From the IMG/VR virus record IMGVR_UViG_2648501437_000035: a DNA stretch of 23,537 nt; one strand, 5' to 3'. The notes under the pieces were generated by a model. The model was not told the DNA's origin. It did not search any database and was given only the letters and a program-made list of their open reading frames with translations. This stretch comes from a virus (taxonomy: Duplodnaviria; Heunggongvirae; Uroviricota; Caudoviricetes). Below are positions 12,380 to 15,975 of this stretch, one piece after another (the first letter of the stretch is position 1; each line of letters begins with the position of its first letter). A program made the position numbers and the translations under genes.

Positions 12380-13096
<717 letters not shown>

Positions 13097-13329: not shown

Positions 13330-13521
13330 GCGCTATGAGATCAGGCATCCTCGTTACTTTGTCATGTGTGACAGCCTGGTATGCACTCTGCGAGCTTTGA
13401 TGTGGTTTACCACTTTAATAGTCACCGTATCACTAAACTGATTAGCTTTACTCATACTCTTGTGGATTCGCTATTTCTGATGTCAATGCAAAAAAATACT
13501 AAGGAAACAAAAAGGATACTT

Positions 13522-13788
13522 ATGTCAGATAACACTATTAAAATCATACCTCAGCACATGACCGCCACATCAGTTCTTATTACGCCTGATCGTGCTGAAA
13601 CAATCATTACTTTTTACCGCCATGAATTTGAGCATCACATGCAGTCTGATGAGCAAGGAAAGAATAGCTTCCAAGTAAAAGTTGAGTTGATCCCTAACAT
13701 GTCAGTCTCAATGAGCCCGGATCAAGCTGTTGCATTAGTAAAATCATTACAGGTAGCTCTCAGGGATAATGGGCTATGGAAAGACTGA
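13522..13788 (+). CDS. hypothetical soluble protein, 88 aa (first gene of the cI-distal pair occupying the rexA position)
   Basis: ATG at 13522 preceded by AAAGGA (7-nt spacer); the ORF track extends upstream to 13381. Its stop overlaps the start of the next gene. No recognised motif. Confidence 0.6.
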   Translation: MSDNTIKIIPQHMTATSVLITPDRAETIITFYRHEFEHHMQSDEQGKNSFQVKVELIPNMSVSMSPDQAVALVKSLQVALRDNGLWKD

Positions 13789-14426
13789 AGCCAGTTTCTT
13801 CAGTTCAACCTACCTCAGGAACAACATCATCAGTTCTTCCAAGTATTATAGTTAGTGCAACCCTAGCAGCGACAACCGTTTCTCCTTATGGGGATCCATC
13901 TCAGTACCAAAGTATTGGTATTGATGCTAAGGTATCAAATAGAGTTTCATACGCCATGGACGAAACGGGTTTGCGCCCAAGTAAGGAAGATGTAGCGATG
14001 AAGAGTGATACCCTGGAGGTAAGCGTGAGCGGAATGTCCAGAGAAGAACTTGACGCAAAGCTTTCACAAAACAAATCAGAGGTAGAGTCTATTGCTGCGG
14101 AAATGCGTCGCGAATCAGCTGACTTTAAAACCTATTATACTCAGCAATTTTCTTCTATTGAGAGAGGTATTGCTGAAATTAAAGGTGAAATCGGCGGTTT
14201 GAAAACGGGACTTACAACGACTCAGTGGGCGATGGCCGTTGGCTTGACTTTAGTTACTGTGATTCTGTCTGGCGTGATGTTAGCCTCAAGTTGGATTATC
14301 TCCGGCAATGACAAGTCACCATCAGTAACCAGCCCGGCTCCAATTATAATACAGGTACCGACACAGCAACCATTAACGAGCGCTCCAACTAACCAATCGT
14401 CATCACAACAAGCTCCTAAGCAATAA
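13776..14426 (+). CDS. hypothetical membrane-anchored protein, 216 aa: Ser/Thr-rich N-terminus, predicted coiled-coil, single C-proximal transmembrane helix, low-complexity tail
   Basis: Start ATG overlaps the upstream gene (ATGGAAAGACTGA). Charged, heptad-like region (ELDAKLSQNKSEVESIAAEMRRESADFKTYYTQQFSSIERGIAEIKGEIGGLK), then a hydrophobic helix (WAMAVGLTLVTVILSGVMLASSWII), then a P/S/T/Q-rich tail. Not similar to lambda RexA or RexB as recalled. Confidence 0.65.
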   Translation: MERLKPVSSVQPTSGTTSSVLPSIIVSATLAATTVSPYGDPSQYQSIGIDAKVSNRVSYAMDETGLRPSKEDVAMKSDTLEVSVSGMSREELDAKLSQNKSEVESIAAEMRRESADFKTYYTQQFSSIERGIAEIKGEIGGLKTGLTTTQWAMAVGLTLVTVILSGVMLASSWIISGNDKSPSVTSPAPIIIQVPTQQPLTSAPTNQSSSQQAPKQ

Positions 14427-14431
14427 ATAAA

Positions 14432-14457
14432 CCCGGCCACCGCGCCGGGTTTTCTTT
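14432..14457 (+). terminator. rho-independent terminator after the rex-position cassette (tImm-like)
   Basis: CCCGGC (14432-14437) pairs with GCCGGG (14444-14449), 6-nt loop, followed by TTTTCTTT. An A-rich tract upstream makes it potentially bidirectional. Confidence 0.7.
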
Positions 14458-14607: not shown

Positions 14608-14671
14608 TAACCATCTGCGGTGATAAATTATCTCTGGCGGTGTTGACATAAATACCACTGGCGGTGATACT
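14608..14671 (+). promoter_or_regulatory. OL operators (OL3, OL2, OL1) and pL promoter
   Basis: Matches lambda pL/OL as recalled: OL3 ~14608-14625, OL2 ~14629-14645, OL1 14653-14669 (TACCACTGGCGGTGATA); pL -35 TTGACA 14643-14648 and -10 GATACT 14666-14671. Confidence 0.9.
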
Positions 14672-14919: not shown

Positions 14920-15303
14920 ATGACACGCAGAACTCAGTTCAAAGGCAATTCACGTTCTCGTCGTCGTGAGCGTTTAAAGGCAAAGGCATTAGCTAACGGC
15001 GTACTGGCCCGCGAAGAAGCAATAAGTTCAGAAGTATTACACCGCCCTACTCTAAGCAGAGCGCAGATTCAGGCTAAAGGTACTCACGAAACGCCTGAGC
15101 GCATAGAAGACGCTAAGCCAATTAAGTTCATGGCACAGGACGTGATCTGGCAACAGAAAGAATACAGACGCAATCTGGAGCGAGCGGCCATTGTGTACGC
15201 GAATGAGTTTGGACATAAGCAACCAGAAACTGGTGTATGTCTTCCAAACGTAGCCATTTACGCGGCAGGCTACCGGAAATCAAAACAACTGACGGCGAGG
15301 TGA
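14920..15303 (+). CDS. N: N antiterminator (non-lambda; P22/933W/H-19B type)
   Basis: 127 aa, first gene downstream of pL/nutL, AGGAGG RBS. N-terminal arginine-rich motif (TRRTQFKGNSRSRRRERLKAKA). C-terminal end PNVAIYAAGYRKSKQLTAR resembles the P22-type N C-terminus as recalled. Confidence 0.8.
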   Translation: MTRRTQFKGNSRSRRRERLKAKALANGVLAREEAISSEVLHRPTLSRAQIQAKGTHETPERIEDAKPIKFMAQDVIWQQKEYRRNLERAAIVYANEFGHKQPETGVCLPNVAIYAAGYRKSKQLTAR

Positions 15304-15361
15304 CTTGTGTTGGTCGCCAGAAAATGAAATTAGGCAGCAAACCACTTATTTGAGGTGAGAT

Positions 15362-15832
15362 ATGACAAAATCATGGAGCGTACCTTTTCCTGAATCAGAA
15401 ACTGAACATGATGGAATGCCTGTTTTCTGGAGATTCCAGGCGACAGTTGAAGAAGATGGGATAAAAATATTCGCACTTCAATATATAGCTTTTCATCAGA
15501 CAGAGCATTATGCATGGTTGGTTCCTGCGCATTGGATTGTTAATTTTAAACCAGCACCAAATCAGTGGTTACAGGAATGGAAACAAAGGAGAAATAGATA
15601 TGCAATTAAGAAAGTAGCAAAAAATGCAGAAAGATCTTTTGCATTCCCAACGAAGAAACTTGCCATTGAAAGTTTATTGCGCCGGAAGAAATACCATTTA
15701 ATGAGAATCAAACAAGATTTGGCTGTTGTATCAACTCTTGTTGATGGTATGAAGAATATTGATACATCAACACCAGATATTGAATATAACTTTGGACACA
15801 ACCAAGAAACAGAAAATTGGGTATTTTATTAG
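15362..15832 (+). CDS. hypothetical early protein, 156 aa (occupies the ral/sieB region of the pL operon)
   Basis: ORF with GAGGTGAGAT-ATG RBS, directly downstream of N. AT-rich 3' half, basic region (KQRRNRYAIKKVAKNAERSF, LLRRKKYHLMRIKQ). No recognised motif. Confidence 0.6.
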   Translation: MTKSWSVPFPESETEHDGMPVFWRFQATVEEDGIKIFALQYIAFHQTEHYAWLVPAHWIVNFKPAPNQWLQEWKQRRNRYAIKKVAKNAERSFAFPTKKLAIESLLRRKKYHLMRIKQDLAVVSTLVDGMKNIDTSTPDIEYNFGHNQETENWVFY

Positions 15833-15975
15833 TACGAATAAGCACTGTGTATTCATTCCAACGAGTGAATACACGGAGCAATGTCGCTCGTAACTAAACA
15901 GGAGCCGACTTGTTCTGATTATTGGAAATCTTCTTTGCCCTCCAGTGTGAGGGCAATTTTTTTGACGGAGGATAT

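Follow-up and report, generated by a model that had tools for sequence, protein, structure and literature searches.

The gene for the Ral protein of phage lambda (PF11058) lies between N and the ral-ea10 spacer of the pL operon, and the protein stimulates methylation and thereby relieves type I restriction. Exclusion proteins of the SieB type are associated with the membrane and are made in the prophage from a promoter of their own. In the list of Silas et al. (bioRxiv 10.1101/2023.04.06.535777), the "Ral" accessory region comes second, and another gene of this region, orf184 of phage mEp213, was found to trigger the gop-beta-cII abortive (cell-death) system (bioRxiv 10.1101/2023.04.06.535777). 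A 104-aa relative of the P22 gene 17 product was included in the same screen as UDP0144 and is not among the genes with a reported phenotype (bioRxiv 10.1101/2023.04.06.535777). The lambda sRNA PreS/LPR1 is Hfq-dependent and ~88 nt long with a processed form of ~68 nt; it appears in the lytic cycle only, from 10 min after induction, and activates the translation of dnaN (bioRxiv 10.1101/2024.10.31.621285).

We compare with these systems a 156-aa ORF and the hairpin behind it in a window of 23,537 nucleotides (the whole stretch of DNA analyzed), which carries a lambdoid prophage with the leftward early operon on the + strand. A lambda-like cI is located at 12383-13096, and the region of interest comprises the following features.

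14643..14671, + strand: pL promoter (TTGACA-17-GATACT), within the lambda-type operators oL1-oL3
14920..15303, + strand: antiterminator N of 127 aa, of the 933W/H-19B/HK97 type (PF25694)
15301..15361, + strand: 5' anchor of the variable slot, made up of a 3' remnant of a phage-21-type N (ending in VTCVGRQKMKLGSKPLI and a stop codon) and the RBS GAGGTGA
15362..15832, + strand: 156-aa ORF with an ATG start, corresponding to HK97 gp45, 933W L0079 and phrog_1636
15845..15876, + strand: conserved RNA stem-loop of 14 bp including two G-U pairs, with the loop CAAC
15876..15963, + strand: PreS/LPR1, Hfq-dependent sRNA of ~88 nt, with the 5' end placed according to the published primers used in its cloning (GAGCAATGTCG...)
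15935..15963, + strand: intrinsic terminator tL2a (8-bp GC-rich stem followed by T7), the 3' boundary of the exchangeable module
15976..16287, + strand: homologue of P22 gene 17 (PF17420), the next gene after tL2a

The gene 17 homologue is followed by lambda-type cIII, kil, gam, bet and exo, and the region from cI to cIII shares 99% identity with HK97 over 91% of its length. In the promoter scan, pL was the sole promoter-like site upstream of the 156-aa ORF on the + strand. Between pL and 15935, the terminator scan called nothing but a weak 5-bp stem inside N; apart from that stem, no terminator-like site of any strength came after pL before the call at 15935-15956 followed by T7, which corresponds to lambda tL2a. 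Since pL is the sole promoter-like site and no convincing terminator precedes tL2a, the 156-aa gene should be silent in a lysogen and co-transcribed with N. The cI repressor would keep the gene off through pL, and the first, N-independent transcript made from pL after infection or induction would carry both N and the 156-aa ORF (Rho-dependent termination left aside). We infer from this layout that the expression of the gene is immediate-early.

The 156-aa ORF is present as the first-pass annotation described it, at 15362-15832 on the + strand and as the first ORF 3' of N, and a strong RBS (GAGGTGA) is located 3 nt 5' of its ATG. Its product has the same sequence as 933W L0079 and as the orthologues of many Stx1/Stx2 phages (100% identity), and shares 99.4% identity with HK97 gp45. 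Neither the 156-aa ORF nor the PreS sRNA is new as a sequence. Full-length homologues sharing 55-85% amino acid identity were found in Pectobacterium, Cronobacter, Brenneria, Rosenbergiella and Salmonella phages. In each of the 15 pairs of homologues compared, pN (0.18-0.44) was far below pS (0.66-0.90), with 14 of the 15 pairs being too saturated at synonymous sites for a dN/dS ratio. As the homologues stay full-length and pN is much lower than pS, we regard the ORF as a real coding gene under purifying selection. The gene is carried by 598 of the 5,426 complete E. coli genomes (~11%), in up to four copies, and the exact protein occurs on at least 1,000 contigs.

The gene had been called unrecognised from the DNA alone, and the database searches agree with this. 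Sequence searches of Pfam, NCBIfam, PADLOC and PDB with the 156-aa protein returned noise only, including a best PADLOC match to Cas1 that is not credible (E 0.018, 12 bits). Homology to Ral was not found (no Pfam match at E <= 1 beyond noise), and the Pfam scan of 40 members of the family gave no match. The protein is annotated as "hypothetical" in every database record found, and the literature search on L0079 or HK97 gp45 found nothing relevant. As for the genomic context, all Enterobacterales prophages examined have the gene in their early leftward operon: a relative is found between N and cIII in a Cronobacter prophage, and between N and kilR/erf or recT in two further lambdoid elements. 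The homologues are not confined to the position after N, as a Pectobacterium homologue is located just before xis/int, and a relative on a ~47-kb phage contig heads an operon and adjoins a ParB-like gene. The neighbours of the distant relatives are small unknown genes, and no obligate partner gene of the family was seen in any context examined.

The proposal that the ORF sits at the ral position proved literally correct, with the flanks that enclose orf28+ral in lambda imm21 identical and in place. In position, the 156-aa ORF and lambda orf28+ral are exact alleles, joined to the shared flanks at the start codon and ~10 nt past the stop codon. On the 5' side, 15301-15361 is identical to lambda imm21 up to the ATG, at which lambda imm21 continues into orf28-ral and the window into the 156-aa ORF. 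On the 3' side, the shared flank begins 10 nt past the stop codon: from 15842 to the end of the T tract at ~15962 the window is again identical to the lambda ral-ea10 spacer, and the alignment of the window and lambda shows identity over 15842-15956 with a difference of 1-2 nt at the terminator end. The module ends just past the T tract in 933W, H-19B and HK97. Sequences downstream of tL2a vary among phages, being ea10/ssb in 933W, gene 17 in H-19B and the window, and cIII in HK97. A 38-codon ORF at 15237-15353 ends in the C-terminus of the phage-21 N (VTCVGRQKMKLGSKPLI); it is a fossil of recombination between two types of N gene and the 5' homology anchor of the slot.

The variability of the slot was evaluated with the 121-bp hairpin-PreS-tL2a block. 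Among 385 phage records, 318 covered at least 80% of a 131-nt query spanning this block, and among the matches listed the block was at least 95% identical with the upstream genes differing. In 98 loci carrying the block, drawn from IMG/VR and phage records, the ORF directly upstream fell into 19 unrelated families, including Ral (28 loci), the 156-aa ORF (19), a 207-aa protein (10) and orf184 (3); the 156-aa ORF is thus the second most frequent slot allele in the sample examined. Related phages carry unrelated cargo between the same flanks here, as in the phage accessory regions of the type described by Silas et al. Altogether, these data show a hypervariable accessory site of the lambdoid pL operon, which houses interchangeable cassettes including the 156-aa ORF and is bounded by the end of N and the shared RBS upstream and the conserved hairpin-PreS-tL2a block downstream. 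The precise limits of the slot and the range of its alleles are new, being absent from the sources found. The first-pass annotation had stated that genes at this position often counteract host defences, and the slot is indeed a recognised counter-defence hot spot (bioRxiv 10.1101/2023.04.06.535777). Motifs of the 156-aa ORF were not found among the 200 genes screened in that study (bioRxiv 10.1101/2023.04.06.535777).

Ral and the 156-aa gene reside in the same slot with an identical RBS/ATG context and the same downstream hairpin-PreS-tL2a block, and both are non-essential early pL genes. However, Ral is a Cys-rich protein of 66 aa, whereas the 156-aa protein has no Cys, bears a basic centre and shows no sequence similarity to Ral. 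We considered whether orf184, which Silas et al. placed in the same accessory region as ral, is the 156-aa protein, and rejected the identity: orf184 lies at the same junction, directly upstream of the hairpin-PreS block, but encodes an unrelated acidic protein of 107 aa. The P22 gene 17 family (PF17420, 'superinfection exclusion gene product 17') is a neighbouring early accessory gene in the same N-to-cIII interval, but is unrelated to the 156-aa protein and belongs to a different exchange module downstream of tL2a. The gene 17 homologue in the window matches phrog_1510, annotated as 'superinfection exclusion'. Many of the slot cassettes, namely Ral, the 83-aa ORF of phage 2851, orf184 and the 207-aa ORF, have ...KAA or ...AA as their last residues and continue into the same DNA, so that the 3' junction of such cassettes lies inside their last codons. 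Unlike these, the 156-aa ORF joins the shared DNA 10 nt past its stop codon.

The 156-aa protein is soluble, devoid of Cys and free of transmembrane segments (maximum Kyte-Doolittle 19-residue mean of 0.56). It matched phrog_1636 over the full length with an E-value of 2.7e-112, and a profile search of 1.84 billion representative proteins yielded 86 relatives of 130-170 aa. When 40 aligned members (the window protein and distant relatives) were examined, 34 matched phrog_13631 and 17 matched phrog_25384. All three phrogs are annotated as 'unknown function', and they are clusters only, with no member of known function or solved structure. The AlphaFold model, based on an alignment of 84 sequences, has a pLDDT of 95.1 and a pTM of 0.82, and comprises strands at 19-30, 33-46 and 50-55, short helices, a strand at 83-86, a helix at 98-130 and an ordered C-terminal tail. 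The model thus shows a predicted compact, soluble alpha/beta protein, in which three long strands and two short helices are followed by a short strand and then by a helix of 33 residues. A Foldseek search against BFVD indicated that the fold is common to 14 uncharacterised phage proteins (E <= 3.2e-3; 11 of them at E <= 1e-3), the named ones of which belong to Erwinia, Tenacibaculum, Sinorhizobium, Delftia, Rhizobium and Cellulophaga phages as well as uncultured phages. Among solved structures, the model gave no significant superposition on HTH, RHH, AP2/integrase-N or OB folds or SH3-like barrels, and no solved structural relative was found.

The "basic C-terminal half" ascribed to the protein needs to be relocated. 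A basic part does exist, but it is the centre (residues 61-125, net charge +13), and the last 31 residues are acidic (net charge -5). This distribution holds across the 84 relatives, in which residues 61-125 have a median net charge of +10 and the ends are mildly acidic. Lys or Arg is conserved at positions 24, 75, 76, 83, 84, 87, 98, 108-110 and 117, and no conserved pattern of Cys, His, Asp or Ser was seen across the same relatives. That the basic centre is conserved and a pattern of catalytic-type residues is not speaks for a non-enzymatic binder of polyanions. The confident model with no solved relative of its fold, together with the conserved basic face, is new and absent from the sources found.

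The second element of the locus is the hairpin behind the ORF. A perfect inverted repeat had been reported there, and it exists 3' of the ORF, though its true position is 15847-15874, one nucleotide off from that reported. The repeat (GTGTATTCA-N10-TGAATACAC) occurs as a single copy in the window and in none of 100 shuffles. As RNA, the stem grows to 14 bp (15845-15876) including two G-U pairs, and a 76-nt segment (15825-15900) folds with -26.7 kcal/mol and a z of -5.65, a value matched by none of 200 shuffles. Of the two roles suggested by the first-pass annotation, that of a terminator is not supported: the stem contains 5 G-C pairs among 14 and is followed by AGCAAUGUCG, the terminator scan made no call, and the real terminator, tL2a, lies 60 nt downstream. 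Because no U tract follows the stem, we regard the hairpin as not being a terminator. The other role, that of a processing site, gains support, as the end of the hairpin coincides exactly with the 5' end of PreS and compensatory changes keep the stem.

The coincidence with PreS is seen as follows. The window is essentially identical to lambda lpr1 over 15876-15963, including an identical seed region, and the locus ends at the tL2a stem and U tract. The published primers start with GAGCAATGTCG, which corresponds to 15876 in the window, the last base of the hairpin stem (bioRxiv 10.1101/2024.10.31.621285). The "full lpr1 deletion" leaves the hairpin in place; the preprint does not state the origin of the PreS 5' end, and its text and supplement, as searched, do not describe the upstream hairpin (bioRxiv 10.1101/2024.10.31.621285). 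The two studies thus differ in that the sRNA was described there and the covariation of the hairpin is shown here. Rfam has no PreS model, and its search with the hairpin or PreS region gave no credible match (RyhB scored highest, with 19 bits where the gathering score is 55).

P22-like Salmonella phages carry hairpins with wholly different stem sequences at the same place (ST104, ST-32 and SEN22 types), so that the hairpin is kept across four unrelated stem sequences. Across ten distinct hairpin variants, 94.1% of the cells were paired and both sides had changed in 8 of the 14 pairs, in contrast to 26-50% of cells paired in the controls with slid partners. The covariation score was 0.676 against at most 0.135 with slid partners. 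None of 500 shuffles reached the observed number of paired cells, that of both-side-changed cells or the covariation score, while the count of pairs changed on both sides was reached by 39 of the 500. Compensatory substitutions in independent lineages thus mark the hairpin as a conserved structured RNA element. Furthermore, the two G-U pairs, which are conserved across the stem variants, become C-A mismatches on the other strand and in DNA. As these conserved pairs form only in the + strand RNA, the structure belongs to that RNA and not to DNA. HK022 retains PreS with the 5' arm of the hairpin missing, implying that the stem can be dispensed with. The stem at the PreS 5' end with its support from covariation, including the PreS-like loci of P22-like phages, is new and absent from the sources found.

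Those P22-like loci (that of ST104 at 640-810 of L021, and L023, L024 and L025) carry a diverged PreS-like sequence that is ~83% identical over the 5' half, from exactly 15876 onward. They contain a 13-nt insertion and their own compensated terminator stem, with a different hairpin in front and gene 17 or c3 behind. The PreS set of the preprint was given as '92% identity or more' (bioRxiv 10.1101/2024.10.31.621285), and the similarity of the P22-like sequences suggests that the sRNA family may be wider than this set.

We consider the hairpin most likely to be a processing or stability element. More specifically, it would be an RNA element that defines or protects the ends made when PreS is cut from the pL transcript: a cleavage at the 3' base of the hairpin would release PreS, and the N-ORF156 mRNA upstream of the cut would then end in a stem-loop that protects its 3' end. 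We also considered and dropped a PreS promoter within the hairpin, as no acceptable pair of -10 and -35 elements was present. It seems very improbable that the hairpin works otherwise, as a terminator or pause site, as a DNA palindrome for a dimeric protein or as a recombination site at the module boundary. The perfect 9-bp palindrome in DNA and the left edge of the conserved block, which lies 3 nt upstream of the stem in most phages, would fit an action at the DNA level. However, the extended stem needs the conserved G-U pairs that are mismatched in DNA, and the stem sequence varies freely with the pairing kept, which is the signature of an RNA structure rather than of a protein site; a terminator would conflict with the lack of a U tract and of a call in the scan.

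Altogether, we put at somewhat below one half (about 0.45) the probability of a joint reading, in which the 156-aa ORF is a slot cassette encoding an immediate-early, non-enzymatic polyanion binder for host takeover or counter-defence, and the hairpin is an RNA element abutting PreS. The protein would bind a polyanionic target with no catalysis, most probably DNA or RNA and otherwise an acidic host protein. Such binding at the onset of lytic growth would neutralise a host barrier or reprogramme the host, and the protein would then be a functional alternative to Ral and the other cassettes of the slot. The counter-defence version is well motivated, because the 156-aa ORF is allelic to ral and orf184. 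On the other hand, an anti-defence or exclusion activity is a guess made by analogy from position; guilt by position is a weak argument, and the slot also holds genes known only for triggering host cell death. A bolder version appears doubtful to us: that the phage-specific fold family, which has no solved relative and extends from lambdoid prophages to lytic phages of Proteobacteria and Bacteroidota, consists of immediate-early, non-enzymatic, nucleic-acid-binding counter-defence factors against a host system that is unmatched to any inhibitor, with the covarying stem-loop separately being the signal that carves PreS out of the pL transcript.

The basic face would fit equally well a regulator internal to the phage, which binds DNA or RNA and tunes early transcription, antitermination, the fate of mRNA or sRNA, or the lysis-lysogeny decision. 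The absence of catalytic-type residues, the adjacency of a regulatory sRNA and the constant location in the early operons of Enterobacterales prophages, by the regulators N, cIII and kil, are all consistent with such a role. Nevertheless, the searches revealed neither an HTH nor an RHH nor another known DNA-binding fold, and sibling phages in which N, PreS and the immunity region are the same carry unrelated genes such as ral instead. As siblings replace the gene in this way, no core regulatory circuit depends on it, and we consider an internal regulator unlikely. A still lower probability is given to the exclusion or abortion of competing phages (sieB/rex-like) or another benefit to the lysogen. 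The analogy with sieB was drawn in the first-pass annotation, other prophage loci near the immunity region carry defence genes, and the family of the neighbouring gene is annotated as "superinfection exclusion". The sieB-like version is nonetheless disfavoured, as no transmembrane segment, own promoter or homology was found for the 156-aa ORF. The gene has no promoter-like site other than the cI-repressed pL upstream, PADLOC gave no credible match, and relatives are found on phage contigs whose inspected stretch lacks lysogeny genes, as well as among the BFVD matches. Inhibition of host growth or division, or a general shut-off like that by Kil with no link to defence systems, seems as improbable as exclusion. 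Although the gene is an early pL gene sharing its operon with kil, and overexpression of basic proteins that bind nucleic acids is often toxic, kil is already present in the window, no similarity to a known inhibitor turned up, and roughly 11% of the complete E. coli genomes carry the gene stably in up to four copies.

The 156-aa gene is found in the 933W-type Shiga-toxin phages and HK97 and in about one in nine complete E. coli genomes, being annotated as hypothetical throughout. The best-known occupant of the slot is an anti-restriction protein, and the 156-aa product is probably made in the first minute of infection. As a slot allele with such probable timing, the gene is a well-justified and cheap target for counter-defence screens, and the protein is worth structural work because no solved fold resembles it. 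The hairpin, in turn, adds a testable element to the biology of PreS, which boosts host DnaN for phage replication, and P22-like Salmonella phages, too, possess PreS-like RNAs that carry this 5' stem.

Several further elements were observed in the window. A 32-codon ORF at 15881-15979 starts inside PreS and runs through the terminator; a GGAG located 3 nt before its start is partly hidden within the 3' arm of the hairpin. Two overlapping ORFs (13381-13788 and 13776-14426; the HK97 gp49/gp48 region) occupy the rexA/rexB position between cI and pL and match phrog_26809 and phrog_5820, families of unknown function. The former has a weak PADLOC match to PDC-S52 (E 0.009), and the latter has a hydrophobic stretch at the C-terminus; both are candidates for defence or exclusion genes expressed by the prophage. 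A G+C-rich 9-bp stem (AAACCCGGC...GCCGGGTTT) at 14429-14452, flanked on both sides by T and A runs, is likely a bidirectional terminator closing the cI-gp49-gp48 transcript just upstream of oL/pL. Finally, the start of cIII (16347-16405) matches the lambda cIII thermoregulator element in Rfam (RF01804, 88.5 bits).
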